Assembly (NCBI GenBank): GCA_031370785.1
Contig: JANMQY010000139.1
Location: forward strand, 1 to 26,350
Direction of reading: 5' to 3'
Origin: Candidatus Eiseniibacteriota bacterium
GTDB taxonomy: Bacteria > Eisenbacteria > RBG-16-71-46
DNA length: 26,350 nucleotides
The notes under the pieces are model-generated. The model worked only from the letters and a program-made list of their open reading frames with translations, was not told the origin of the DNA and made no database searches. Below are positions 1 to 14,308 of this stretch, piece by piece (within the stretch, counting starts at the first letter, position 1; every line of letters starts with the position of its first letter). Both the position numbers and the translations under genes were made by a program.

Positions 1-2
1 CG

Positions 3-239
3 AAGGCTGTTCGCAGGCTCTCCGGCATCGAAGGGTTTCACGGTCACCAGATGCGGCACACGTTCGCATGTCAGTGGCTCGAGCGGGGCGGAAGTCTTGC
101 CGCCCTTCAACAGATCCTCGGGCACGCCTCAATCGTGACGACGCAACGCTACGCGCGACTCTCCGACGAGCTCGTCATGCGCGAATCAGAACGTCTGCAG
201 TCTCACGGGGCTACCACAGGGGTAGCCAGCAATTCTTAA
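3..239 (+). CDS. Tyrosine recombinase/integrase, C-terminal part (5' end outside window)
   Basis: Frame open from window edge: KAVRRLSGIEGFHGHQMRHTFA...LQQILGHASIVTTQRY. Contains H-x-x-R, LGH and the catalytic Tyr; stop TAA 237-239. Confidence 0.92.
   Translation, partial: KAVRRLSGIEGFHGHQMRHTFACQWLERGGSLAALQQILGHASIVTTQRYARLSDELVMRESERLQSHGATTGVASNS
209..227. repeat. Short perfect inverted repeat GGCTACC-N5-GGTAGCC
   Basis: GGCTACC 209-215 and GGTAGCC 221-227, inside the recombinase 3' end and 20 nt before the tRNA. Function unknown. Confidence 0.45.
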
Positions 240-247
240 GTCGTTGT

Positions 248-324
248 GGCCCCGTAGCTCAGACGGATAGAGCAGCGGTTTCCTAAACCGCGTGCCACTG
301 GTTCGACTCCAGTCGGGGCCACCA
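248..324 (+). tRNA. tRNA-Arg (anticodon CCT)
   Basis: Acceptor stem GGCCCCG/CGGGGCC, D-arm GCTC...GAGC, anticodon arm GCGGT-TTCCTAA-ACCGC (CCT 282-284), T-arm ACTGG-TTCGACT-CCAGT, encoded CCA end. Confidence 0.97.
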
Positions 325-328
325 ACAC

Positions 329-1324
329 CTAGTCGCCGGTCTTCTCCCGCAGCGCCACCCGCGCCGCTTCCCGCTCGATCAGCTCGTCGGTCACGCGCGC
401 GTATCGCATCGTCGTGCTGAGATCCCGGTGCCCGAGGATCTGCTGGAGGACCGCGAGATTGCCGCCGGCCTCGAGCCAGCGCATCGCGAACGTGTGCCGG
501 CAGCGATGCACATGGAAGTCCGGGATTCCGGTCCGATGCCGGACTCCGCGCGAGAATGATCCAGGGCTTCCGGCCGCATACGGCACCAGCCTGTGTTCGC
601 AACGGGAGATCTCGTCGAGTAGTTCCGGGTTCAGTGGCACGCGACGCAGGCGCCCCGACTTGGTGTTTCCGACCTCGAGCAGCGCGCCACGGACATCGTC
701 ACGCGTTGCGCGGCAAGCTTCGGCCCAGCGCAGGCCGGTTCCGAGGAGGAACCTGAGCACGAACCCAGCATGTCCTGGGACGGCGACGAGCGTCGCGACT
801 TCACGGTCGTTGAACCCGCGTGGAGCCACCTCCGCAATCCGCGGCATGACGCGGACTGGAAATGGTGAGCGCTCGAGCAATCCGACGCTGACCGCCCAGC
901 GTAGAAAGCAGCGCAGGTCGCTCAGCACGTGGGTCACTGTGTAGGGGCTGAGCTTCCAGTGATCCTCGAGCATGAGCCGAAACTCGCGGATTTGGTCGCC
1001 GTTGAGTTCCCTCAGCGTTGTGGGGCTGAGCCAGCCGAGCGCGTAGGTGTCAAAGCGAATCTTCGCGAGCCGCTGGCCCTTGGCATTCCTCGTCGTCGCG
1101 ACATAGGACGCAAGCCAGCGGTATCCCGCCTCGAGCAGGGTGGGACCGTCAGAGGTGCCTTGTTCCGGCGGACCGGGCGTATGGCCCGGAACACGCCGTG
1201 GGCTTGGACATCTGTCACGCGCGGCGACACCTCCGGAAACGATGCCTGCGGGGACCGGGGCAAACGGGTGCGTGGGCAGCGCACTTTCAGCGCACTCTCG
1301 AACCTCACGCACGTCCCGGGCCAT
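329..1324 (-). CDS. Tyrosine recombinase/integrase (~331 aa)
   Basis: Full catalytic set: GLRWAE (R), TKSG (K), HRCRH (HxxR), LGH, TTMRY (Y), plus a core-binding region (LSPYTVTHVLSDLRCFLRWA). ATG at 1324 chosen as start; the track's longer ORF overlaps the divergent gene. Start uncertain. Confidence 0.9.
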   Translation of the reverse strand: MARDVREVRECAESALPTHPFAPVPAGIVSGGVAARDRCPSPRRVPGHTPGPPEQGTSDGPTLLEAGYRWLASYVATTRNAKGQRLAKIRFDTYALGWLSPTTLRELNGDQIREFRLMLEDHWKLSPYTVTHVLSDLRCFLRWAVSVGLLERSPFPVRVMPRIAEVAPRGFNDREVATLVAVPGHAGFVLRFLLGTGLRWAEACRATRDDVRGALLEVGNTKSGRLRRVPLNPELLDEISRCEHRLVPYAAGSPGSFSRGVRHRTGIPDFHVHRCRHTFAMRWLEAGGNLAVLQQILGHRDLSTTMRYARVTDELIEREAARVALREKTGD

Positions 1325-1426
1325 GTCCCCCCGGGCCCCCCTCGAAACCCACGGCCCTCCTTGCACGTATTGCAGGCACGTCCCGCGACACGAGAGGTCC
1401 TTTCGGAGGGGCTTGTCTTGACCGAC

Positions 1427-3169
1427 ATGCAGACTCGACTGAGCGCGATGCCGCCCCTGGAAGTCCCGAACCCCTCGACGGTCGTGTCGGCGTTGGTCCA
1501 GATGCTTTCCCGCCTGGGCGTGCAAGAGGCGTTCGGCGTCTCCGGTGGCGCAATGGCGGCACTATGGGACGCACTGTCATCGAGCCCACTCGGCGTCTAT
1601 CACTTCCGTCACGAGACAGGGGCCGCGTTCGCCGCCATTGAGGCGTGCTTCGCCAGCGGGCGACCGACCGTGCTGTTCACGACCACGGGACCCGGACTCA
1701 CCAACGCGCTGACTGGCATCGTGGCGGCTCGCGAAGAACGAGCGCGCGTCATCGTCGTCTCGGCGTATACGTCCGCGTCCTCCCGGGGCCGGTTCGCGAT
1801 CCAGGAGACTTCGCGCGGCACCTTGCCTCCGTCGCTGTACGAATCCGGACGGCCGTTCCACTTCGCCACCGTTGTCGACGATCCCACGCAACTCGCCGCG
1901 GTCGAGAGGGAGCTCGCGACTGGCCTCCATCGCCGCAGCGGGTTTGTCGCGCATCTGGCGCTGGACACCGAGGCGCAGCGAGCACCTGCGGCCCAACCTC
2001 AGATTCTGTCGCTGGCGGTTCCGATGTCCGCGGAAACACCGCCCCTCGCGCAGGTCGCGGCTTGCATCGATGCGCTGAGCGATGGACCGTTTGCGATCTG
2101 GGTCGGGTATGGCGCACGCGATGCCGCGGCCGAGGTCGCGACGCTCGCCCGCTGCACGCAGGCGCCGGTGATGTGCTCACCGCGCGGCAAGGGGATCTTC
2201 CCCGAGGATGACCCGCTGTTCGTCGGTGTGACCGGCCTGGCGGGACACGCGTCGGTCATGCGCTATCTGGAGGAGTTCAAGCCGCGACGCCTGCTGGTCC
2301 TCGGCTCACGGCTGGGCGAGCCGACCTCGTTCTGGGATCGCCGTTTCATCACGCCTGAGGGCTTCGTTCACGTTGATGTGGATCCGGAAGTTCCGGGCGT
2401 TGCGTTCGGCGCCGCGCCCACGCTCGCCGTTGTCGGGGACGTCGGAGCAACGCTGCGGGCGGTGCTCGCCGACCTGCAACCTTCGAGCGGCGACGCCATG
2501 CCGGAGCTGCCGCATCCGCGCATCGACCGAATCGAGCGGCGCAGTGACGGCCCGGTACGCCCCGAAGCGCTGATGGACGCGCTGCAGGACTGGGTCGTCG
2601 ATCGCAGCGACGCAACCGTGCTGTCGGAGTCCGGCAACTCATTTTTATGGACGACGCATCGGTTGCGGTTCTCCACGCCGCACCGATACCGGGTCAGCAC
2701 CGGGGTGGGGGCGATGGGTCACGCTTCGGCCGGTGTGATCGGCGCAGCGCTGGCCAGCGGGCGCCGGGCGGTGGCGGTTGTCGGCGACGGGGCCCTGCTC
2801 ATGACCAACGAGATCAACACCGCGGTGAAGTTCGATGCGCCCGTGGTGTGGGTCGTCCTCAACGACGGACGCTATGGCATGTGTGCCCAGGGCATGGACG
2901 CCCTCGGGCTCTCGGCCGACGCAGAGATCCCGCAGGTCGACTTCGCGGCGTTCGCACGCGCACAGGGAGCCCGTGCGACACGTGTCGACCACGAGGTGCA
3001 GCTCGACGCAGCTCTGGCAGAGGCAATGGCGGCAGACGGCCCCTTCGTCGTGGACGTTCGCATCGACCCGCGGTGCAAGGCGCCGGCGTCGCTGCGCAAC
3101 GCCGCGCTCGCCGAGAAACTCTCCCTGCATCGCGAGCGGATCTTCCCCTCGCGCGAGGACCCGCGGTAA
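1427..3169 (+). CDS. scyA: ScyA-like thiamine-diphosphate-dependent acyloin synthase (acetolactate synthase family, ~580 aa)
   Basis: FGVSGGAMA, HFRHE (catalytic Glu), TTTGPG, GDGALLM...VLND ThDP motif. Segments such as RGRFAIQETS and LGEPTSFW match recalled cyanobacterial ScyA. GGAGG at 1405-1409; start is ATG 1427 or TTG 1418. Confidence 0.85.
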   Translation: MQTRLSAMPPLEVPNPSTVVSALVQMLSRLGVQEAFGVSGGAMAALWDALSSSPLGVYHFRHETGAAFAAIEACFASGRPTVLFTTTGPGLTNALTGIVAAREERARVIVVSAYTSASSRGRFAIQETSRGTLPPSLYESGRPFHFATVVDDPTQLAAVERELATGLHRRSGFVAHLALDTEAQRAPAAQPQILSLAVPMSAETPPLAQVAACIDALSDGPFAIWVGYGARDAAAEVATLARCTQAPVMCSPRGKGIFPEDDPLFVGVTGLAGHASVMRYLEEFKPRRLLVLGSRLGEPTSFWDRRFITPEGFVHVDVDPEVPGVAFGAAPTLAVVGDVGATLRAVLADLQPSSGDAMPELPHPRIDRIERRSDGPVRPEALMDALQDWVVDRSDATVLSESGNSFLWTTHRLRFSTPHRYRVSTGVGAMGHASAGVIGAALASGRRAVAVVGDGALLMTNEINTAVKFDAPVVWVVLNDGRYGMCAQGMDALGLSADAEIPQVDFAAFARAQGARATRVDHEVQLDAALAEAMAADGPFVVDVRIDPRCKAPASLRNAALAEKLSLHRERIFPSREDPR

Positions 3170-3179
3170 CGGTCACTCG

Positions 3180-5357
3180 ATGGAAAACAACACCTTCGCT
3201 ACCACGATCTACGCCCAGGCACCGGCGACGCGGACGTTCGCGTACTTGCGGCGTCTGCAGAACCTCGATGAGTGGACCCTCGGCAGCCGCATGCTCACGC
3301 GCATCGACGACGACACGTTCATGGGCACAGCATCTGGCTACCAGGCCATGCTGTGCTACCACGTGCGCACGCTCGAGCATCCGCGGCTGTCCGCGATCGA
3401 ATGGCAGTGCGGCTACCGTTATCGCGAGTACTTCAAGCAGTACCCCGTGTTCGTGTTTCCTTCGCGGTATGCGGACCCACACGGCGACGAAGACGGCAGC
3501 TACATCCACTGGGTCAGCGTGATCGATCCCGCACGCCGAACCGAGATGATCATGCAGGGGATCTCGGCCGTGCATCGCTACGAGGCGCGAGGACTCAAGG
3601 CCGCGCTCGAGCGCGGGGAGGGGGCTGAGCGGCCCGCCGCGGGGCGATTGTCCGTGATCTCGGACACGATGTGGGTCGATGCCCCGATCGAAATGGCTCG
3701 AGCGTTCCTCGCCGATCGAGGGGCCCTCGCCCAATGGGCGCCGCTCTTTCGCGCTGTCGACGCTGATGCGGGGTCGTTCCTCGACGAGTATGCGCGGCGT
3801 GTCCAGGTCGAGTTCGCCGCGTGCGATCTCGGCGACTACGTGCTGGTCGAGCAGGACTATGCGTACCCCGATCTCGGTGTGGTGCAGCGCTGCCCGATCG
3901 TCCTGGTGCCGTGCGCTCGCGCCTTCGGCCCAGAGGCGCCAGGGTTCCTGCTCCACCGGATCGCATTCGTCCGCAACGACGGGTCGCAGACGCACGGTCG
4001 CACGACGGCCTCCGAACTGAGCGCGGAGAGCATGGCGATCAAGCGTACGCTCGAGGCGCGCGCGGGGAACCTGACCAGTTTCGCTCGCGGGATGAGCTAC
4101 CGCCCCGATCCCGCGACAACCGAGGACGAGATCATGGCGTCACCACCGGACATCTTCGCACCTGAGTTCGCCGCGGATCCTTACCCGCACTATCGCCGCA
4201 TGCGCGACGAGTATCCCCTGTACTTCCACGCACCCACGCAGGCGTGGATCTTGAGCCGGTACGACGACGTCCGCATGGCGCTGACCAACCCGGCGTTCAC
4301 CACCAGGAGCTATGCCACGCAGACCGAGCCCTTGCTCGGCAAGACGATCATCCAGCTCGACGGACGCGAGCATGCGCTGCAGCGCGGGTTGCTGACGCCA
4401 TCGTTTCGCGAGGGGAGCATTCGAGAGCGCTTCTCGAATCTGATCCGCGACGCCATCGACGAGCTGATCGGCGCGGTCGCATCGCGCGGCGAAGCGGATC
4501 TGATCGCGGATGTGGTCGTGCACCTTCCGGTACGCATCATGGCGGGGTTGCTCGGCTTGCCCGTGCACGACCGCGACCGCTTCCGAACGTGGTACACGGC
4601 CCTCATTCAAGGTGCGCTCAATCTCGCCGGTGACCCTATTGTGGCAGCGGCCGGCATCAGGGCCCGGGACGAGCTCGACGCCTACCTGCGGCCGCTGATC
4701 GTCGCCCGCCGCGAGAGGCCGGGCACCGATCTCATCTCCACCCTGGCGACGACCACGGTCGAAGGCGATCGGCTGACCGACGAACAGATCATCCGCTTCG
4801 CGATGCTCATGGTCTTCGCGGGTGGCGAAACCACGGAGAAGGGGCTCGCGACCACTCTGCGCAACCTGCTCGCGCATCCCGACGTTCTAGCAGCCGTGCG
4901 GCGGGACATGTCGCTGCTGCCGCGAGCGATCGCCGAGTCGTTCCGCTACACCGCCCCGACCCACATGGTGCCGCGTCAGACCAGCGAGGAAGTGCAGGTA
5001 TCGGGTGGACTGCTGCCGGCGGGGGCCGATGTCATGTGCTTCCTCGGCTCGGCCAACCGCGACGAGCGTCGCTTCGCCGATCCCGATCACTTCGACCTCA
5101 ACCGACCCGAGGCCGACCCCAAGCGTGCGTTCACAGGCGCGGCCGACCACCTTGCGTTTGGCGGCGGCAGGCACTTCTGCCTCGGAGCCGTACTCTCGCG
5201 TTTCGAGATCGAGGTCGCGTTGAGTCACATCTTAGACGCCTTACCCGACCTGCGACTCGCCGACGAGACGCCTCCTCCCGATGTCGGGTTGTTCCTGCGT
5301 GGCCCAGCGACGCTTCCGGTTCGGTTCTCGAAACCGACGTTGGAACGAATCTCATGA
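3180..5357 (+). CDS. scyC: Fusion of ScyC-like cyclase/decarboxylase (aa 1-318) and cytochrome P450, CYP134/CypX-like (from Met at nt 4134); 725 aa
   Basis: N-half (MENNTFAT, NLDEWTL, GTASGY, IEWQCG, DAPIEM, AESMAIKRTLEARAGNLTSFARGMSY) follows recalled ScyC end to end. C-half has the I-helix AGGETT, ExxR (AESFR) and heme motif FGGGRHFCLG. No stop codon between the halves. Confidence 0.85.
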   Translation: MENNTFATTIYAQAPATRTFAYLRRLQNLDEWTLGSRMLTRIDDDTFMGTASGYQAMLCYHVRTLEHPRLSAIEWQCGYRYREYFKQYPVFVFPSRYADPHGDEDGSYIHWVSVIDPARRTEMIMQGISAVHRYEARGLKAALERGEGAERPAAGRLSVISDTMWVDAPIEMARAFLADRGALAQWAPLFRAVDADAGSFLDEYARRVQVEFAACDLGDYVLVEQDYAYPDLGVVQRCPIVLVPCARAFGPEAPGFLLHRIAFVRNDGSQTHGRTTASELSAESMAIKRTLEARAGNLTSFARGMSYRPDPATTEDEIMASPPDIFAPEFAADPYPHYRRMRDEYPLYFHAPTQAWILSRYDDVRMALTNPAFTTRSYATQTEPLLGKTIIQLDGREHALQRGLLTPSFREGSIRERFSNLIRDAIDELIGAVASRGEADLIADVVVHLPVRIMAGLLGLPVHDRDRFRTWYTALIQGALNLAGDPIVAAAGIRARDELDAYLRPLIVARRERPGTDLISTLATTTVEGDRLTDEQIIRFAMLMVFAGGETTEKGLATTLRNLLAHPDVLAAVRRDMSLLPRAIAESFRYTAPTHMVPRQTSEEVQVSGGLLPAGADVMCFLGSANRDERRFADPDHFDLNRPEADPKRAFTGAADHLAFGGGRHFCLGAVLSRFEIEVALSHILDALPDLRLADETPPPDVGLFLRGPATLPVRFSKPTLERIS

Positions 5358-5402
5358 ACGCCGGCAAATCGGGATGACGACGCCGCGCGAGGAGAAGCAC
5401 AC

Positions 5403-5465
5403 ATGACTCACAGGACGAACGCTCGGCTCGCCGGCGCCATGCCGCCGCAGAGGCAATCGGCCTGA
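5403..5465 (+). pseudogene. Possible N-terminal gene remnant (DUF4386-like start MTHRTNARLAG)
   Basis: Strong RBS GAGGAG at 5389-5394, then a 20-codon ORF whose first 11 residues resemble recalled DUF4386 N-termini. Confidence 0.3.
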
Positions 5466-5519
5466 CAATGCTGGGCACCGCGGACCTTCTCGTCCGCGGT
5501 GCCGTACGTCGGCCCAACT

Positions 5520-6947
5520 TCAGGATGCGGGTTTGATGTTCTGATTCATGCGGAACAGATTGGTCGGATCGAACTTCGCCTTGAGTTTCGCCAGGCGGTC
5601 GTAGTTGGGACCGTAGGCGCCTACTTGCACGCGCTGCGTCTCGTCCTCGGGCATGAAGTTCACGTACACGCCACCGGTCGCGAACGGGGTCGCTGCGTCG
5701 AACAACTCCCGCGTCCACTTGATGCATTCCGCGTCCTGCGATGATTCTCTCCAACGCGTGTGCACGTTCATGATGAAGTCAATGTCGCGGTGAGGATATG
5801 CAGTGGCGCCGGCCGGAAGCCGATTGACGGCCCCGCCGAGGTGCCCGATGAAGACCTCGCACTCCGGGGTCGGCAGGTGGCCCACCGCGTCGCGCACGAC
5901 GTCGAGGAATCCGTCGTCGAGCTTCTTGAAGTCATGCGACTTCCAGTAGTTCCGGGCACCCGGCGTGAGGAGCGGATCGAAGGCCGTCTGCCATCCTGCG
6001 AACGGGGCCGGTCCGATCACATCCGCAATCGGCTTTCCCAGCGCACGCAGTGGCGCGACCGCCTTCTCGGCCTTCTGAATGTCCCCGATGGCGCACACCG
6101 CAAACACCAGGATCTCCTTGCCATGCACCTCGGGGGGCAGGAACGGAAGCGGCGGAGCCTTGCGCAACACCACCCAGGCCGTGACTTCATCGGGAGCCGA
6201 GGCGACGAAGCGACGGTACCCATCGAGCAGCTCTTTTGCCTGCGAGAACGGATGGACGATGAGGCCCGCGATCACTTGAGGGCCCACCGGGTGAAGCCGG
6301 AACTCGAACGAGGTGACCGCGCCGAAATTGCCGCCGCCACCACGCACCGCCCAGAACAGGTCCGGGTTCTCCTTTTCGCTCGCCCGCTGCAGATTGCCGT
6401 CGGCGGTCACGATGTCCACCGACAGCAGGTTGTCCACGGTGAGTCCGAGCTTGCGGCTGGTCCAGCCAAAGCCGCCGCCGAGCGTGAAGCCTGCAATCCC
6501 GGTCGTCGAGTTGATCCCCAGCGGAGTCGCGAGGCCGAAGGCCTGCGCCTCACGGTCGAACTCGCCCAGCGTGACCCCGGGCTCGACGCGCGCTGTGCGA
6601 GCCGCCGGATCTACGCGCACCGACTTCATCAACGACAGATCGAGCATCAGCCCGCCGTCGCACACTGCGTTGCCCGCGATATTGTGGCCACCACCACGCA
6701 CCGCCAGCAGCAGCCGATATTCCCGGGCCAGCGAAACCGCGCGCATCACATCCGCCGCTCCGGCAGCGCGCACGATCGCCGCCGGCTTGCGATCGATCAT
6801 CGCATTCCAGATCGTGCGGGCGGCGTCGTAGCCCGGCTCGCCGGGCAGGCACAGTGTTCCGCGCAATTCCTTGCGCAGCCCTTCGAGCACCTCGGCCGGA
6901 ATCGATTTCCGGCCTCCATCGAGTGTCTTCAGATCGACTGCGGTCAC
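5520..6947 (-). CDS. FAD-binding oxidoreductase, berberine-bridge-enzyme-like (~475 aa)
   Basis: RGGGHNIAG (His for covalent FAD), GFTLGGGFG, RGGGGNFG, C-terminal YVNF...LKAKFDPTNLFRMNQNI. GTG 6947 is preceded by AAGGAG. An alternative in-frame ATG lies at 7250. Confidence 0.93.
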   Translation of the reverse strand: MTAVDLKTLDGGRKSIPAEVLEGLRKELRGTLCLPGEPGYDAARTIWNAMIDRKPAAIVRAAGAADVMRAVSLAREYRLLLAVRGGGHNIAGNAVCDGGLMLDLSLMKSVRVDPAARTARVEPGVTLGEFDREAQAFGLATPLGINSTTGIAGFTLGGGFGWTSRKLGLTVDNLLSVDIVTADGNLQRASEKENPDLFWAVRGGGGNFGAVTSFEFRLHPVGPQVIAGLIVHPFSQAKELLDGYRRFVASAPDEVTAWVVLRKAPPLPFLPPEVHGKEILVFAVCAIGDIQKAEKAVAPLRALGKPIADVIGPAPFAGWQTAFDPLLTPGARNYWKSHDFKKLDDGFLDVVRDAVGHLPTPECEVFIGHLGGAVNRLPAGATAYPHRDIDFIMNVHTRWRESSQDAECIKWTRELFDAATPFATGGVYVNFMPEDETQRVQVGAYGPNYDRLAKLKAKFDPTNLFRMNQNIKPAS

Positions 6948-7334
6948 CCTGCTGCTCTCCTTTCGTCTCTGGATGGAATTCGCGACTATCTGGCCCCCGG
7001 CGAGAAGGTGGAGATTGGCAGACAATTCGCCGCTCGCGTCGCCATCCGCAGGCGCGAGACTTTGGTCGTGGGGGCAAGGCCACACGTGTCTTACGTGGCA
7101 TTGGTACTGCGGTGACGCGTGATGCGTCAAGGGGGCTCCTGCCTGAAATGACTCCGAATCCACTCGAGGCGTCACCGCTTCAGCCGGCGAGGCGGCGGCG
7201 GTAAGTACGACTCCAAGAACCAGCAAGGCGCAACCTCTCACAAGGCGCATGAGATGTTTCCTCCTTCCCGCCCTACGGGTCGGCACCGATTCTGGTTTCG
7301 GGGCGGGCACTTTTCGGCGAGCGGCGAGCAAAAG

Positions 7335-7358
7335 GGTGCTCCGAATCCTAGGAGCACC
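7335..7358. promoter_or_regulatory. Inverted repeat in divergent intergenic region (possible operator or hairpin)
   Basis: GGTGCTCC (7335-7342) - N8 - GGAGCACC (7351-7358). Confidence 0.35.
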
Positions 7359-7569
7359 TCTCTTCGTTGCCGGAGAGGACCGGCGAGGGGTCACACCAAA
7401 GTACCGTGGACCCATCGGCCCCTGCGACGCATCTTCAATGCTCTCGGGTGTCGGCGACACCAACCTCCTCTTACGGATTCGTGCTTCGCGGCGTGTTGCG
7501 ATCTCGTCGTGGAGCGCAGGTGGCCCTGTAGTTCGCAATGGCTGCAGCTCACAGGAAGGGAGAACGTCC

Positions 7570-8415
7570 ATGAGCACGATCACGATGAAGGATGGCACCC
7601 GGATCTATTACAAGGATTGGGGAACGGGACAGCCGATCGTCTTCAGCCACGGATGGCCGCTCAGCTCGGACGCGTGGGAGGACCAGATGGTCTTCCTGGG
7701 GGCGCGCGGTTACCGCTGCATCGCACACGATCGCCGCGGGCATGGACGATCGGGCCAGCCCTGGACCGGCAACGACATGGACACGTACGCCGACGATCTG
7801 GCGGCGCTTGTCGAGGCGCTGGATCTGCGCAACGCCATCCATGTCGGTCACTCCACCGGCGGGGGAGAAGTCGCGCGCTACATCGGACGGCATGGCACGA
7901 GCCGCGTCGCCATGGCCGTGCTGATCGGCGCGGTGACGCCGCTCATGCTCAAGACGTCCGCCAATCCGGGCGGCCTGCCGATCGAGGCGTTCGACGCGAT
8001 TCGCGCGGGCGTCATCGCCGATCGATCCCAGTTCTTCAAGGACCTGAGCGTTCCGTTCTATGGCGCGAATCGTCCCAGCGCCAAGGTCTCGCAGGGCATC
8101 CGGGACTCGTTCTGGCTCCAGGGAATGCTGGCGGGCCACAAGTCCGTCATCGACTGCATCAAGGCATTCTCCGAGACCGACTTCACGGAAGATCTCAGGA
8201 AGTTCGACGTGCCGACGCTGATCCTGCATGGCGACGACGACCAGATCGTCCCGATCGGCGCGTCGGCGATGCTGTCGTCCAAGCTCGTGAAGGGCTCCAC
8301 GCTGAAGGTCTATCCGGGTCTCTCGCACGGCATGTGCTCGATCAACAAGGACCAGATCAACGCGGATCTGCTCGCGTTCATCAAGGCGCCGGTGCACGAA
8401 GCCGCCCCCAGATGA
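7570..8415 (+). CDS. cpo: Alpha/beta hydrolase, cofactor-free haloperoxidase/perhydrolase family (281 aa)
   Basis: [29 protein letters not shown] nucleophile, [12 protein letters not shown]. Purine-rich RBS before ATG 7570. Confidence 0.93.
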
Positions 8416-8448
8416 TGTTCGTGAGTCTCAGGTAGTCAAACGCCGACG

Positions 8449-8485
8449 GAAGCGGGTCGCCGAGGAGTCAGCGGCGACCCGCTTC
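8449..8485. terminator. Stem-loop between convergent genes, likely bidirectional terminator
   Basis: Perfect 14-bp stem GAAGCGGGTCGCCG / CGGCGACCCGCTTC with a 9-nt loop; no clear U-tract. Confidence 0.65.
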
Positions 8486-8520
8486 GCTTGCGTGCCCGAG
8501 GGGAACAACCATCAGCGCAA

Positions 8521-8763
8521 TCAGCGGCCCGAGGTTCTCGGAGCCTTTCGGTTGTCGGGCCCTCGCAGGGTCTGGCGCGCGCTCCGCGGCTTCGCGTTCT
8601 TTCGCGCCATCTCCCGCTCGTCCAGATTCTGGTCGACGCCGGCCTGTTCGTGGCGTCCTCGGGTGGGATTGGCGGCCGGCCCGAGCGGACCGGGCGACTT
8701 TGCAGGCCGCCGAGTCTGGCCGGAGGATGATGACTTCCTGGTCTTCTGCTTGCTGCCCGCCAT
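8521..8763 (-). CDS. Small basic, low-complexity hypothetical protein (80 aa)
   Basis: AAGGAGG 6 nt before the ATG; K/R/S/P-rich; ends just before the 8449-8485 hairpin. Confidence 0.65.
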   Translation of the reverse strand: MAGSKQKTRKSSSSGQTRRPAKSPGPLGPAANPTRGRHEQAGVDQNLDEREMARKNAKPRSARQTLRGPDNRKAPRTSGR

Positions 8764-8944
8764 GGTCTGCCTCCTTGTGAAGTAGTGGCTCGAAATCGCC
8801 GAACGCTCTCATTCCCGAGTTCGTGGTCGACGTGGATTGAGTTTCGATGACCTGTACCGGGCCGCGGTTGCTGAATCATTTTCCCTGGGGCAACTCAGAT
8901 ACTTCGGGTTGCACGCGCGCGGAAACGGGAGAACAATCTTTGTC

Positions 8945-10042
8945 ATGAAACCTTCGCGATTCGTCCCGGTCGCGCTCGCGCTGCTCGCATGTTTCGCCGC
9001 ACCGGCTCGAGCTGCGCAGCCTGCCGGCTCGGCTGCGCTCGCTCTACTTCTGCACCGGCGCTGGCGATGTGAACGGCGATGGGTACGATGATCTGGTGGT
9101 GGGGGCGAGGCGCTTCAGCGGAAACGGCATCACACGCGAGGGGCGCCTCTACGTCTACCACGGCTCGCCGTCCGGGCTCTCGACCACAGCCAGCTGGGTT
9201 CGTGATGGGGGGCAGAGGAATGGAGAGTTTGGCGAGTCCGCGTCGAACGCCGGCGATGTCAACGGGGACGGCTTTGGCGATCTGATCGCGGGCGCGTTTC
9301 GCTACGACCACCCTGAAGTGGACGAAGGAATCGCCTACCTGTTCCTCGGCTCGACGAGCGGTCTCTCGCAGACGCCTGCCTGGACTGCCGAGGGTAATCA
9401 GGCCGGGGGATACTTCTCGTACCACGTCGATACTGCCGGCGATGTGAACGGTGACAACTTTGCCGATGTCGTGCTCACTTCGGCGAACTACGACGTGAAT
9501 GGATTCACCGATGCCGGCAGCGCCTGCGTGTATCTGGGATCGCCATCGGGACTGGCATCCACGCCCGCGTGGATCCAGGACGGCGATCAGGCCGGCGGCG
9601 GGCTCGGCAACTCCGGGCGTGGAATGGGCGACGTGAATGGCGACGGATTCGATGACGTCGGAACCGGCGCGCTGTATGAGGACTTCGGCTCTTGGTGGAT
9701 GCCGGCCGTGCGTATCTGTTCTACGGATGCAGCGACGGCCGCACGGCTGTGCCGGAGACTGATGCTGCGCGACTCGACCTTCGCGCGGCGGGCCCCAATC
9801 CATTTTTCGCAGGCACTTCGATCGCGTACGTCGTTCCGTCGCGCGAGGCGGTGACGCTGTCGGTAGTCGATGTCTCGGGCCGGATCGTGACCGACCTCGT
9901 CAACGAGACGGACCCATCCGGAGTTCACATCGTCGCCTGGGATGGTCGCACGCGAGACGGTCGACGGGCGGGCGCCGGGATCTACTTCGTGCGTCTGGCG
10001 ACGCCGGATGGAATCAGGAAACTCAAACTGGTTCGGATGTGA
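8945..10042 (+). pseudogene. Secreted FG-GAP (integrin-alpha-like) repeat protein with C-terminal FlgD-Ig-like domain, broken by two frameshifts
   Basis: Signal peptide MKPSRFVPVALALLACFAAPARA in one frame; four GDVNGD repeats in the next frame (9069-~9690); then PNPF...VDVSGR...WDGR...GIYFVRL back in the first frame (9692-10042). Confidence 0.85.
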
Positions 10043-10055
10043 GAGGAGTCTCCGA

Positions 10056-10544
10056 ATGAGCATCGTTGAAGCACTCATTCCCGAGTTCGAGCAGGAGATG
10101 GCGACGACCCGCAGGCTGCTCGAGCGCGTGCCGAGCGAAAAGGGCCAGTGGAAGCCGCATCCCAGATCATTCGCGCTGGGCCATCTCGCTCAATTGGTCT
10201 CGTGGATGCCCGGTTGGATCGCGAACACGCTGACCAATACTGAACTGGACCTCGCCACCGCACCCGGATACAGCTTCGAGACCACCGAGACACTGGTCGC
10301 CGGCTTCGACCGGAACGTCCGCGAGGCGAAAGAAGCGCTCCGATCGGTGAAGGACACCGACTTCACCGTGCCGTGGTCGCTGAAGCGCGCAGATCGGGTG
10401 CTATTCACTGCGCCACGAGGAGTTGTGGTGCGCTCGCATATCAGTCACCTGAGCCATCATCGCGGCCAGCTCACCGTCTACCTGCGACTTCTCGACGTGC
10501 CGATCCCATCGATCTACGGACCGACCGCAGACGAGCGCATGTAG
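10056..10544 (+). CDS. DinB family protein (162 aa)
   Basis: RBS GAGGAG; WKPHPRSFALGHLAQL and HLSHHRGQLTVYLRLLDVPIPSIYGP DinB signature. Confidence 0.9.
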   Translation: MSIVEALIPEFEQEMATTRRLLERVPSEKGQWKPHPRSFALGHLAQLVSWMPGWIANTLTNTELDLATAPGYSFETTETLVAGFDRNVREAKEALRSVKDTDFTVPWSLKRADRVLFTAPRGVVVRSHISHLSHHRGQLTVYLRLLDVPIPSIYGPTADERM

Positions 10545-10647
10545 GGGAAATCAGCAGCTTGTAACGCACAGCGTGCAGGATGCTGGGTTCCGGCCATGAC
10601 CACAATTTCACTCGACTAGCGGATTCCGCACGCTTACGTTTGAACCC

Positions 10648-11247
10648 GTGCGAACCCGCAAGCGCATCTCGATGGCAATCTCCGCCGTCACCGTGACGAC
10701 CTCCGGTGCATGCGCCGGCAGTCTCGCGCGTGCATGTGCCGCGCTTCTGCTCCTTCTTCTGCCGCTCACCTCATGTCACAAGTCACCGCTTCAACCGGCA
10801 ACCGGGGTCTACGACTTCTCGCTGGTCGACGTGAACCCGAATTCGGCCACCTACGGGCAGGCGGTTTCCCGCTCGAACTTCGCCGGCAAGCCGCTGGTGC
10901 TGTTCGTCGGCGCCTCCACCTGAAGCTTCTGCCAGCGGCAGTTCGCCGCTCTCAATGACATCGCCGGGTACTGGCCGGCCCAGAGTCTTGATGCCGTCCC
11001 GCTCTTCATCAACATCATCGGCACGGAGTCGGGCGTCGCGGCGCTGACGCAGGGGCGGACGATGCCGATTCTCCAGGACACACCCTCGGCAAAGGTCGTC
11101 GGGAGACTCGGGTTGGTGAAGGACGATCTCGTCATCCTCGATCGTCAGGGCAGCTTCTGGAAGCGCCAGCACACCGACACGAACTGGAATTTCTACACCG
11201 AGCCTGGGATCTCGACGCTGGATACCTGGGTGCGCGAAGTGCCGTAG
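10648..11247 (+). CDS. Putative selenoprotein: thioredoxin-fold lipoprotein with U-x-x-C (Sec at TGA 10921-10923)
   Basis: Track ORFs 10648-10923 and 11062-11247 are in one frame separated only by a single TGA. Read-through gives PLVLFVGAST-U-SFC. Lipobox-like LLLLPLTSC; redoxin-like DFSLVDVN and LVILDRQG; hairpin 10934-10950. Start is GTG 10648 or ATG 10672. Confidence 0.8.
10934..10950 (+). promoter_or_regulatory. Candidate bacterial SECIS element
   Basis: AGCGGC-AGTTC-GCCGCT stem-loop beginning 10 nt after the in-frame TGA, with a G in the apical loop. Confidence 0.6.
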
Positions 11248-11261
11248 GCGATCCCGCGCAC

Positions 11262-11342
11262 CTCGAGCAGATCGCGCAGCCTCTGCGCGACGGTCTTCGA
11301 TCCTGGCGGAGTCTCCGCAAACCTGTACAGCCCCAACTCCAT
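11262..11342 (-). pseudogene. N-terminal remnant of an LLM-class (luciferase-like) flavin-dependent oxidoreductase
   Basis: ATG 11342 reads MELGLYRFAETPPGSKTVAQRLRDLLE, resembling recalled LLM starts (MELGLYTFA...QRLRDLLEEIELAD). Similarity then stops and the frame closes at 11193. Confidence 0.5.
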
Positions 11343-11536
11343 GTCTTACTCGAGTCCACGGATGAGCGTCGCCCGCGCGCCGTGCAAGCATTGGCGCGGC
11401 GCGCGAAGCGCAGACTCCATGCGATCGGGCAGGGACAAGCGCGCCGCAAATCCCGGCGGAGGTGTCGACTTGCAGTCCGCGCGTCGCGTGCGCGATTCTG
11501 CACCGTCGTGAGGCTCGACTGACAAGAGGAGAGACC

Positions 11537-14308
11537 ATGCACTCTCGATCGAGGTCGAATTCCGGAGGCGCCGCGACGCGGGCATTCACGATCGCGCTCC
11601 TGCTCGCTTCGTCAGTCGCCGACTTCGTGCGGACAGGCGCCGCGGCCGCGACTGCCTCGGTCGCGCTGCCCGACACCGGCGTGTTCGCTCCGGTCGCGGC
11701 CCAGCTCGAGGCGCGCCTCGCGCGGCTCGCGGAGCTTCCTGCCGGAAACGTGACGCCCGAGCGACTGTGGCTGCTGCTCGACACTGGTCGGCCCGATGCG
11801 GCGGCGCGGATCGCGAACGCGCTGATCGGCGACGATCCCGCGGCACTCGTCGCGCGAGCGCGCGTCGCGCTCGCGATGCAGGATTTCGCGACCGCGGCCC
11901 CGATCGTCGCGCGGCTCGCGCTGAGGCCAGAAGCCGACGCGCGCGCCACTCGCTACCTCTGGGAGTCGGCGCGAGACGCAGCCGGCACCCTCGATTCGCT
12001 GACCCGCGCTCGACTCGCAAGCGGCGATGCGGGATCGGTGCCCGAGCTGCTCGCGGCCGGGCAGCTCGCGTACGACATGCTCGACTACCCGCGCGCCGAC
12101 GATCTTTTCTCGCGTGCGCTGGAGGCCACGCCCAAGGGCTCCTCGTTTGCCGCCCGACGGGCGCGCTCGGCCGCGCACGTTGGCCGCGCGGTCGTGATGC
12201 AGAAGCGTCGCGACTGGGATGGCTCGCTGGCTGAGCTACGCCTCGCACTGGCTGAGCACGCCAGCGCCGCTGCGCTCGAGGCCTCCGCCAATACGCTGAT
12301 CCGGCTCGGTCGCACTGACGAGGCAATCTCGGCAGGGGAGTGGGGCGTGCGGCTCTATCCCTACAGCGACGGGTCGCACTATCTGCTCGGGAACGGCTAC
12401 GCGCGCAAGAACTACACTCAGCTCGCGGCCGCCTATCCGGCGGCGTTCGCCGATGCCGGCGGCCGCAGGGCGCTCAGGCTCGGCGACGCGAAACTCGCTG
12501 CCGGCCACCGCGAGGCGGCGCGCAGGCAGTACGCGGCGGTTGTCGCCTCGCATCCCGGATGGGCGGACGCGCACGTCCGGCTCGCCTCGCTGGACTTCGA
12601 GAACAGTCGCTTCGCCGAGTCGCGCGACGCCTGCTTCGCCGCGCTCCGCGCGTGTCCCGAGTACGGCCGCGCTCACGCGGTGCTGGCCAAGGCGCTCGAG
12701 TCGCAGCGCTTCGTGGTCGACGTGCACCGCACCGACTACGAACGGCGCTTCGCCGCCATGCCGACGCCACAGGTGCCCGACATCGAGAAGTTCGTGGTCA
12801 ACTGGCGCTCGCTCGGCCCGCGTCACCAGAAGCGCGTTGCGCTCTCGGTCGCACCATGGAAGGCATTCGTGCCGGTGCTGGTGGATGGCGGCGCCACCTT
12901 CTACATCAAGCCGCTCTACATGCTGCTCAGTGAATGCCCGGACATGCAGACGCTTCACGACCAGCGCATCGACTACGATTCACGGCTGTGGGACGACGTG
13001 CGCGGAGCGGGCGGGTTCCACACCGTGACTGGCATCGAGGATGTCGAGCGCACCATCTTCGACCGCTACAACACCGTCACTCATGAACTGACGCATCAGG
13101 TGCACGGGGTGCTGCCGGCCGACGACTCGCGCGCGATCCAGGACTCCTATCGGCGCGCCAAGGTGCGCGACGACTCGACCCACGATGCGTTTCTCTCGCG
13201 CTATGCGGGAGGGAGCGTCTACGAGTACTTCGCCGAGGGCGCCAACGCGCTGGAGTCTCCGAAGCGCGACGCCTACGACCCGCGCGAGGTCGTGCGCGAG
13301 CGCCTCGACACGATGGACCCCGCGCTCGAGAACATGGTTCGAGCCTTCTTCGCTCGTACCGACGTGAGCGCTTCCTATCCGGTGGCCTACGCCGCCGGCG
13401 GGGACGATCGCGTCGAGCGCGGCAGGGTGAAGGAAGCGCTGCCGTTCTATCGCAAGGCGCTGGCGGCGCGGCCGGACGAAGAGATCGCGCTGGTCTCGTA
13501 TGCGAGAGCACTCGCGCTCGGAGGTCAGGCCACGGCGGCGGAATCCGTGGCGGCTCGCGCGGTAGCGGCGCACCCCACGAGCGGTCCCGCACGCCTCGCG
13601 CTCGCCAGTGCGGCCTGGAACGCCGGGCGCGGTCTCGATGCCGCGCGCGCCGGGCTCAAGTCGAGCCGGAGCGCAGTGCGCGCCGAGGATCGCTACCAGA
13701 TCGATCAGGCGCTGGGCGCCTACGCGTGGACCGCTGGCGATACCGCCGCCGCGCTGGCGGCGTTCGATTCCGTGCTGGCCTACCAGTCGGACAATCCCGA
13801 GGGCCTGCATGGGCGGGCGTCTGCGCTCGCGCTGGCCAGCCGGAGCGACGAAGCCTTCAAGCTCTACGACCGGGCCGTGCGCGAGCGCACCGGCGTCGTC
13901 GATCTGCGCTGCGACTATGCGCGGGATCTGCTGTGGGCGGGGCGCTCGGCCGAGGCGGTCAGCCAGCTGGATGCGGCGAGCCTGCTCGATGCGCAGAATG
14001 CGACCGCGGAGGCGCTGCGTGGCTGGGCCGCTCTGCAATCGGGTGATCTCCGTGCGGCGCGCGCGCACATGATGCATTCGCTCGCATGGGGGCCGTGGTG
14101 CGACCTTGCGCGGATCGTCGAAGGCGGCATTGCGAAGCGCGCGGGGGATGCGGCCGCCGCCGAGCGCGCGTGGTCATCGGTGCGCGCCCGCATCGCGAAC
14201 AACACGCCGCCCGAATACGTCTATCGCCCGAAGCTCGCGGTGTGGGAACACGTGCACACGCTGCCGGCGGTCGAGCGGCGGCTGTTGGAGAAGCTTGCGG
14301 CGAACTGA
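11537..14308 (+). CDS. Large secreted TPR-repeat protein with central zincin-like metallopeptidase domain (923 aa)
   Basis: RBS GAGGAG; signal-like N-terminus; Ala-rich TPR helices on both sides; HELTH (13082-13096) followed by EYFAE (13223-13237). Confidence 0.8.
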   Translation: MHSRSRSNSGGAATRAFTIALLLASSVADFVRTGAAAATASVALPDTGVFAPVAAQLEARLARLAELPAGNVTPERLWLLLDTGRPDAAARIANALIGDDPAALVARARVALAMQDFATAAPIVARLALRPEADARATRYLWESARDAAGTLDSLTRARLASGDAGSVPELLAAGQLAYDMLDYPRADDLFSRALEATPKGSSFAARRARSAAHVGRAVVMQKRRDWDGSLAELRLALAEHASAAALEASANTLIRLGRTDEAISAGEWGVRLYPYSDGSHYLLGNGYARKNYTQLAAAYPAAFADAGGRRALRLGDAKLAAGHREAARRQYAAVVASHPGWADAHVRLASLDFENSRFAESRDACFAALRACPEYGRAHAVLAKALESQRFVVDVHRTDYERRFAAMPTPQVPDIEKFVVNWRSLGPRHQKRVALSVAPWKAFVPVLVDGGATFYIKPLYMLLSECPDMQTLHDQRIDYDSRLWDDVRGAGGFHTVTGIEDVERTIFDRYNTVTHELTHQVHGVLPADDSRAIQDSYRRAKVRDDSTHDAFLSRYAGGSVYEYFAEGANALESPKRDAYDPREVVRERLDTMDPALENMVRAFFARTDVSASYPVAYAAGGDDRVERGRVKEALPFYRKALAARPDEEIALVSYARALALGGQATAAESVAARAVAAHPTSGPARLALASAAWNAGRGLDAARAGLKSSRSAVRAEDRYQIDQALGAYAWTAGDTAAALAAFDSVLAYQSDNPEGLHGRASALALASRSDEAFKLYDRAVRERTGVVDLRCDYARDLLWAGRSAEAVSQLDAASLLDAQNATAEALRGWAALQSGDLRAARAHMMHSLAWGPWCDLARIVEGGIAKRAGDAAAAERAWSSVRARIANNTPPEYVYRPKLAVWEHVHTLPAVERRLLEKLAAN

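Follow-up and report, generated by a model that had tools for sequence, protein, structure and literature searches.

Scytonemin biosynthesis in Nostoc punctiforme, encoded by scyABCDEF and the ebo genes, is the described system closest to the locus reported here. In that pathway ScyB makes indole-3-pyruvate and ScyA joins it to p-hydroxyphenylpyruvate (PMC6282210, PMC7997468). Cyclisation and decarboxylation of the ScyA product by ScyC then give a ketone, from which a single (auto)oxidation leads to the monomer (PMC6282210). Ebo proteins export the monomer, and its dimerisation by ScyE in the periplasm has been posited but not shown in vitro (PMC6282210); the last oxidative step is merely attributed to ScyE, and E. 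coli halts at the monomer (PMC7997468), which was made there from ScyA-C with no P450 (PMC6282210). We analysed a 26,350-nucleotide stretch of DNA from an uncultured and non-photosynthetic Candidatus Eiseniibacteriota bacterium (GenBank assembly GCA_031370785.1, contig JANMQY010000139.1; hereafter the window), in which a ScyC cyclase domain and a cytochrome P450 are fused in a single gene directly downstream of a scyA-like gene. We refer to these two genes as the cassette.

Scytonemin has been described as exclusive to cyanobacteria (PMC9796282). The same 2022 survey counts 71 cyanobacterial ScyC proteins and one from Methylocaldum marinum, for which relatives of ScyA, ScyB and ScyC are reported, unlike for the cassette, which lacks scyB; the terms 'P450' and 'fusion' are absent from its main text. 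Some cyanobacterial scy clusters have monooxygenases, with no occurrence of the term P450 (PMC6939163), and the one paper found to name both ScyC and P450, PMC7822155, does so in unrelated sections. The earlier note on this DNA knew of no described ScyC-P450 fusion, and in agreement with it our literature search, which left most subscription journals and supplements outside its scope, returned no description of either the fusion or the cassette.

A second related system is found in actinomycetes, whose carbazole pathways (CqsB1/CqsB2, NzsH/NzsI) pair a thiamine-diphosphate (ThDP) indole-pyruvate ligase with an SRPBCC cyclase, need a ketosynthase III (KAS-III)/acyl carrier protein (ACP) partner and yield carbazoles. 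To our knowledge, no cyclase-P450 fusion is known in these pathways. ScyC is a tandem SRPBCC protein 17% identical to CqsB2, which is the best structural match of its first half. With the Nostoc cluster the cassette shares the ScyC-family domain and an upstream ScyA-like ThDP enzyme, but it lacks scyB, scyD/E/F, ebo and the precursor genes, carries a P450 instead, which is fused in this clade, and is hosted by bacteria other than cyanobacteria. Since scyB, scyE and ebo are all missing, the cassette does not count as a scytonemin cluster, though its function probably corresponds to the first half of that pathway. It is a conserved variant of a known pathway that has apparently not been described before.

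ScyC and P450 domains share one open reading frame

The fused gene spans positions 3180-5357 of the forward strand and comprises 725 codons, with a stop-free frame over 3180-5354 and a stop codon ending at 5357. Translation bears out the uninterrupted ScyC-linker-P450 frame described in the earlier note, including the linker RPDPATTEDEI, the GAGGA motif and the internal ATG at 4134, and the P450 motifs that it listed as intact (AGGETT, ESFR and FGGGRHFCLG) are all present. The same open frame extends 5' as far as an ATG at 2835. However, residues M1, E2, N4 and T5 counted from 3180 are invariant in 101/101 aligned fused proteins, and we therefore place the gene start at 3180 and reject the start at 2835.

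The N-terminal part matches the NCBIfam ScyC model NF035924 over residues 2-309 (model positions 1-312) with 405.9 bits against a cut-off of 400, which places it within the ScyC family, with close fused relatives scoring 368-409 bits, on both sides of that cut-off. The residues after the ScyC part are a P450 (PF00067, E = 2e-34). A predicted model of the ScyC part (predicted local distance difference test, pLDDT, 89) has the di-domain aromatase/cyclases (ARO/CYC) StfQ and BexL as its closest folds, together with CqsB2 (Z 16.9, root-mean-square deviation 2.4, 145 aligned residues). The AlphaFold model of the whole fusion (pLDDT 88, predicted template modelling score 0.84) has a confidence dip at the linker, and we take it solely as a prediction of two well-folded domains. 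Because its N-terminus is not hydrophobic, the fused protein is most likely cytoplasmic. A promoter and terminator scan of positions 1-6000 gave 0 promoter-like sites and 1 terminator-like site, which lies within the range expected from shuffled sequence, and no RNA run was found among the public sequencing runs listed as matching the window DNA.

The fusion is conserved across a family of proteins

The earlier note had cautioned that the fusion might be a recent stop loss or an assembly error, or that the P450 might also be translated alone. Using the ScyC part as query against proteins of 398-1269 amino acids, we scored 8000 candidates and obtained 123 matches, 120 of which were listed. Both domains were full length in 111 of the 120 listed matches (110/119 without the query), at 53-90% identity to the query in ScyC and 57-92% in the P450; among the remaining listed matches, 7 were truncated fusions and 2 had no P450 match. 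This length range favours fusions, and split forms were therefore searched separately, revealing the same two domains as adjacent genes in 23 split loci.

Both domains are under purifying selection, with ratios of non-synonymous to synonymous substitution rates (dN/dS, six pairs) of 0.11-0.22 in ScyC and P450 and 0.29-0.53 in the linker. The linker is 13-27 amino acids long in 96 parsable proteins, and up to 42 in one locus, with the frame kept. Over the fusion joint of the window itself (4090-4140), a public contig from a separate assembly (run X2, record 14) covers positions 3553-4316 gap-free, though run X2 belongs to the same study as the best-matching run and possibly depends on the window's source. 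P450 records at 82-88% identity that stand alone mostly start with a ScyC tail and are thus partial gene calls of the fusion.

The share of fused homologues and the purifying selection refute a recent stop loss or assembly error, and a fusion that is real and old is supported. A broader form of the objection would hold that the fusion is incidental, with the P450 chiefly made from ATG 4134 and acting without ScyC. GAGGA and an in-frame ATG do occur here, in 10/44 DNA loci the linker contains a start codon together with a ribosome-binding-like motif, and a few fused-clade proteins stop in or near the linker or shift frame there (P0123, P0126, P0129, P0130). We nevertheless consider this explanation highly improbable, given the predominance of fused homologues, a linker that varies in length and stays in frame, the constraint on both domains, the partial nature of most isolated P450 records and the grouping of the fused forms in both gene trees (see below). 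Separate translation of the P450 from ATG 4134 is possible at this locus but is not a feature of the family, as a methionine occupies the position of Met319 in only 21/96 parsable linkers.

Members of the family are annotated merely as 'cytochrome P450' or 'pulcherriminic acid synthase' (e.g., P0425, P0429, P0435), and some of their gene calls begin within the ScyC tail or the linker, such that the fusion is hidden in public records.

P450-linked loci differ from canonical scytonemin loci

We compared gene order at 95 loci, 15 of them from a genome collection and 80 from metagenomes, the latter being the best of 130 confirmed there; as the loci were ranked by likeness to the query, and include the duplicates L007/L040, L053/L055 and L102/L103, shares among them are not frequencies. 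The fused form was found at 46 loci, the fused clade with frameshifts at 2, a split arrangement of scyC followed by a P450 gene at 23 (with only the P450 start visible in 3 of these) and the canonical arrangement at 12, while 2 loci had scyC without a following P450 and in 10 the contig ended too early. At canonical loci, which are presumably cyanobacterial (38-46% GC), scyB lies between scyA and scyC and is followed by scyD/E-family genes, often with scyF and ebo. Genes for scyB and the ScyD/E family were present at 12/12 canonical and 0/71 P450-linked loci, and a P450 was present at 0/12 canonical loci. Neither scyF nor ebo was seen at any of the 71 P450-linked loci, at least 2 kb beyond the P450 being visible in 35 of them.

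Linkage of scyA and scyC, which the criterion for a scytonemin cluster asks for, is found in the window, where the gap is 10 nt, and in 60/71 P450-linked loci, where scyA ends less than 200 nt from scyC; it lies farther away in 3 and is unseen in 8, mostly with short flanks. More than 100 ScyC-P450 fusion clusters, with a parallel split form, occur in bacteria from soil and sediment that represent at least three phyla, and because such clusters exist beyond cyanobacteria, scyA and scyC by themselves cannot be taken as diagnostic of scytonemin. At the 15 loci from the genome collection, the flanking genes mostly bear no relation to one another (99 open reading frames scanned), indicating that the two genes are the unit in the window's sub-clade.

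The P450s of split loci belong to the same clade as the fused ones and are 54-65% identical to the query's P450. The stop of scyC and the start of the P450 gene overlap in 10/20 split loci and lie 5-11 nt apart in the remaining ones, and the overlapping arrangement would be one frameshift short of a fusion.

Both split and fused forms also occur in a longer cluster, with a PEP-CTERM protein upstream (16 loci) and an SRPBCC protein (16), a 220-amino-acid protein (14) and a di-heme cytochrome c (13) downstream, mapped at L080 (3821-5861) and L070 (4088-4948). The 220-amino-acid protein falls in hypothetical clusters of the ESM Atlas, with a DUF3108-like match as the only lead. The 13 loci with the di-heme cytochrome c comprise 6 fused, 6 split and 1 without a P450, and this cytochrome, not the P450, could be the oxidant. 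At locus L076 (119-4075), scyC is followed by the SRPBCC and 220-amino-acid proteins fused in a 400-amino-acid open reading frame, with the cytochrome c farther on.

Other genes accompany individual loci. A HisC-like aminotransferase lies directly 3' of one split cluster (L070, 11204-12418) and is a candidate keto-acid source replacing ScyB. A histidine kinase is found 5' of scyA in L001 (4145-5299), L008 (2955-4835) and L088 (3657-4980), with a LytTR regulator also present in the latter two. Genes of the DUF4386 family occur within or beside the cassette in L053, L065 (between scyA and scyC), L069 and L011.

The P450-linked lineage is sister to the scytonemin cluster

A ScyC tree built by a quick method (98 rows, no outgroup) placed all fused forms on one side of a branch (SH-aLRT, the Shimodaira-Hasegawa-like approximate likelihood ratio test, 100), with canonical ScyC as a single group that shares a polytomy with two split groups. 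In a careful ScyA tree, built from 31 of 63 rows with long-branch rows omitted and rooted on eight ScyA-related proteins, the ScyC-linked ScyA proteins form a clade (support 100/99) that divides into canonical (99/96) and P450-linked (100/99) sisters, and the fused forms are one clade (96/93) inside the P450-linked group. A quick tree of all 63 rows gave the same result, with long-branch warnings. As the fused forms make up a single clade within the P450-linked group, they probably go back to one ancient fusion event in this sister lineage of the scytonemin cluster. The mutual exclusion of P450 and scyB/D/E across loci accordingly reads as one split between two clades and not as repeated replacement.

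The outgroup rows of the ScyA tree come without gene context, and the second cyanobacterial ScyA copy, into which Myxococcales and Acidobacteria sequences have been placed (PMC9796282), may be among them; the trees therefore fix no direction of transfer. The P450-linked lineage can serve as the outgroup previously lacking for rooting and dating the scytonemin pathway. As a non-photosynthetic sister lineage, it implies that scyA-scyC chemistry is no cyanobacterial or sunscreen speciality and may predate the sunscreen cluster.

Of the 171 ScyC columns conserved in canonical proteins, 94 are just as conserved in the split and fused proteins and 4 are fixed differences, and in ScyA only 2 of 230 conserved columns are fixed differences between canonical and P450-linked proteins. 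Given so few fixed differences, we infer that the same or a closely related ketone is made.

The P450 domain resembles CypX but lies outside its family

The domain has the features that define the P450 superfamily, namely the heme-cysteine motif, ExxR, an I-helix acid-alcohol pair and the P450 fold. E550-T551, E586/R589 and C667 are invariant in 101/101 fused proteins, and such retention of the acid-alcohol pair and the heme cysteine suits ordinary oxygen activation. The earlier note had called the domain CYP134-like, and the resemblance holds: CypX/CYP134A1, the pulcherriminic acid synthase of Bacillus subtilis, is its closest solved relative (E = 4e-76) and its best match in both sequence and fold, with a shared AFxGAAxHLAFG segment.

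Membership in CYP134A, however, is rejected. Identity in the structural alignment is 31-32%, whereas P450 families are held to more than 40% identity, and the best curated P450 model, TIGR04538, gives 296.7 bits against a cut-off of 500 for CYP134A/cyclodipeptide oxidases. The I-helix reads G-G-E-T in this P450 and A-T-E-P in CypX, with Thr in place of the CypX Pro. The partner genes also differ, a ThDP enzyme and a cyclase here and a cyclodipeptide synthase for CypX; no cyclodipeptide synthase family was found among the 99 heuristically picked open reading frames flanking 15 loci or among the window neighbours scanned. The label 'pulcherriminic acid synthase' carried by many members is unsupported. 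CypX is likewise the oxidase of a two-gene cluster and oxidises and aromatises a ring, with no dimerising, and several other bacterial P450s dimerise indole compounds via C-C or C-N bonds (PMC7954767). With this P450 as query, no second P450 was detectable in the window's own genome.

A proposed two-gene route to an oxidised indole alkaloid

We propose that the cassette encodes a minimal, cytoplasmic two-gene indole-alkaloid pathway, in a sister lineage of cyanobacterial scytonemin synthesis. By analogy with ScyA, the ThDP enzyme would join indole-3-pyruvate to an aryl-pyruvate, probably 4-hydroxyphenylpyruvate, giving a labile beta-keto acid; as scyB is absent, the keto acids would come from housekeeping aminotransferases. 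The N-terminal domain, going by its ScyC membership, would cyclise and decarboxylate this beta-keto acid to a cyclopenta[b]indol-2-one ketone. The tethered P450, served by unlinked host redox partners, would then oxidise the ketone, by desaturation to the benzylidene 'monomer' and/or by hydroxylation, a step left to autoxidation in cyanobacteria. The product would be an oxidised monomeric phenol-indole and not scytonemin itself. The fusion would have made permanent a coupling of the scyC and P450 genes that already existed, and it probably reduces loss of the autoxidisable intermediate.

We give P450 oxidation of the ScyC indole-ketone at the monomer level, by desaturation or hydroxylation, about an even chance. 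The fusion of the P450 to the cyclase points to the cyclase ketone as its substrate, and oxidation at the monomer level is favoured because CypX is a ring oxidase, the P450 has an I-helix typical of ordinary monooxygenases and no export gene recurs with the minimal cassette.

Several points weigh against this proposal. In E. coli the monomer forms with no P450 present, so an enzyme for the monomer step is not obviously needed, and the likeness to CypX (~32%) is too low to transfer a reaction type. The cassette has no ferredoxin or reductase gene, the window's own genome containing 3 Fer2 matches, one of them in a 172-amino-acid frame. The ScyA-like enzyme scores 772 bits with NF035923 (cut-off 1020) and 719 with NF035927 (cut-off 1000), and as it lies under both cut-offs its substrates may differ, although these are by far its nearest families and 2 of 3 canonical-like ScyA proteins scanned also fall slightly under the cut-off (1008.6 and 977). 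Finally, locus L028 has 675 nt of 5' flank without scyA, and no P450 follows scyC in L076 (7 kb visible) or L039 (123 nt visible).

The earlier note had suggested that the P450 oxidises or dimerises the ScyC product, as an alternative solution to the late step of the pathway. The lack of scyD/E/F and ebo at all 71 P450-linked loci fits an alternative late oxidation, but we consider dimerisation specifically to be unlikely. As a soluble cytoplasmic dimerase, the P450 would link two ScyC ketones or monomers by radical C-C coupling, so that reduced scytonemin or one of its congeners would form independently of ScyE and of export by Ebo proteins. The mutual exclusion of the P450 and scyD/E/F/ebo across loci speaks for such a role, as do the occurrence of a full-length ScyD/E-family protein, encoded on another contig than the fusion, in just 1 of the 12 distinct genomes with the fusion, the indole-dimerising P450s of other bacteria and the merely posited dimerase function of ScyE. 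The exclusion, however, is that single split between two clades and not many independent events, and as it extends to scyB, it is not specific to the ScyE step. The closest solved P450s are CypX-type oxidases, with no dimerase title among the rows listed; a hydrophobic cytoplasmic dimer would need export, and no transporter gene recurs by the minimal cassette; and the best-matching runs are sediment metagenomes, where a sunscreen is of little use. Were dimerisation nonetheless correct, the enzyme would be an independent solution to the last scytonemin step and a way past the E. coli monomer block. With its soluble P450, the 3.9-kb two-gene cassette offers a cheap and direct test between a new indole alkaloid and a cytoplasmic dimerase.

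The P450 might alternatively act before or beside cyclisation, hydroxylating an aryl or indole ring in the keto-acid precursors or in the acyloin, or the pathway might use other keto acids (for instance phenylpyruvate, or indole-pyruvate twice) and so build a different scaffold, with the cytochrome c as last oxidant, outside the cytoplasm, in the longer clusters. The ScyA-like enzyme, under its cut-offs and on its own branch, is compatible with this, as are the missing scyB of P450 loci, the recurrence of SRPBCC, 220-amino-acid, di-heme cytochrome c and PEP-CTERM genes in longer clusters, and locus L076, which retains longer-cluster genes without a P450 after scyC. The very few fixed differences in ScyA and ScyC argue against it, and wherever a fusion occurs at the loci examined, the partner of the P450 is the cyclase and in no case the ThDP enzyme, pointing to the cyclase product; we regard this alternative as rather doubtful.

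Hosts and distribution

By record title, the cassette is hosted by Ca. Eisenbacteria, Acidobacteriota and Ideonella. ScyC was found in 9/206 genomes of the window's phylum, with open frames of at least 500 amino acids in all nine, in 0/400 sampled genomes of the phylum of G209 and in 1/400 genomes of the family of the Ideonella genome (the centre genome excluded in both samples); the cassette is rare and patchy. More than half of the window's sampled words were present in 4 runs from 2 studies, 3 of them labelled sediment or freshwater sediment and 1 just metagenome; the source of the window may be among them. A plasmid collection gave no ScyC match. Two unpublished genomes are included in our counts, G073 as one of the 9/206 and G213 (locus L011) among the fused loci, the 12 genomes and the trees, and the conclusions are independent of both.

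The genome that includes the window, as contig C25, measures 3.44 Mb and is 100% complete by markers; it falls in the same family as genome G160, whose coordinates agree with those of locus L002. This genome of the window has no ScyD/E, EboA or EboC match (E 1e-4), and a ScyF query gave NHL-repeat matches only; the ScyD/E model NF033206 reached at best 29 bits (cut-off 80) and ScyB 80.9 bits (cut-off 600). ScyB was above its cut-off in 0/14 fusion-bearing genome entries, which represent the 12 distinct genomes. The genome encodes TrpA, two chorismate-binding enzymes and 11 class I/II aminotransferase matches, and indole-pyruvate could come from transamination there. The ScyA-like protein is the only TPP_enzyme_N match in this complete genome; no acetolactate synthase was thus found in it, and auxotrophy for branched-chain amino acids is possible. 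The start of the ScyA-like protein is identical in locus L002.

Genomic setting of the cassette

Table 1. Features of the cassette and its 5' surroundings (positions in the window)
Feature	Position	Strand	Remarks
scyC::P450 fused gene	3180..5357	+	725 aa; both domains in 110/119 other long homologues listed
ScyC cyclase/decarboxylase domain, aa 1-309	3180..4106	+	NF035924; predicted tandem SRPBCC fold
Linker, 15 aa, with GAGGA 4122-4126 and internal ATG 4134	4101..4145	+	
Cytochrome P450 domain, aa 319-725	4134..5354	+	AGGETT 4818-4835; ExxR 4935-4946; heme Cys667 5178-5180
scyA-like thiamine-diphosphate carboligase, 580 aa	1427..3169	+	three TPP domains; 10 nt 5' of fused gene
tRNA-Arg(CCT)	248..324	+	ARAGORN; probable integration site beside cassette
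Tyrosine integrase open reading frame facing tRNA	332..1525	-	PF00589 E 5e-19; DNA match to G124 over 347-1273

Downstream of the cassette lie a Berberine-bridge-type FAD (flavin adenine dinucleotide) oxidoreductase (5523-6920, reverse strand) and an alpha/beta hydrolase (7579-8412, forward strand). We rejected both as cassette members, as they stand beside it in 0/95 loci and the oxidoreductase is on other contigs in genomes G124 and G160. Near position 7373, 12 bases are missing from three public runs.

On the 5' side (Table 1), the listed start of the integrase overlaps scyA, and its true start is probably nearer 1270. A second tyrosine integrase gene (3-197, forward strand) faces it, the 3' ends of the two being 73-78% alike. 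A tRNA-Arg(CCT) with integrase genes also precedes the cassette in L001 and L002, and a genome of the same genus (G103, 88% complete) has no match to the cassette, which suggests that the cassette is carried on an integrative element. No second copy of the tRNA 3' end was found within the window, such that the island boundary was not located, and a repeat search of positions 1-12000 gave no repeats bounding the cassette, the long inverted repeats there being the two facing integrase ends. Elsewhere in the same genome, contig C49 carries a second tRNA-Arg(CCT) (169-249) together with 39-nt copies of its 5' half at 4338-4376 and 7666-7704, as is expected of an integration hotspot.

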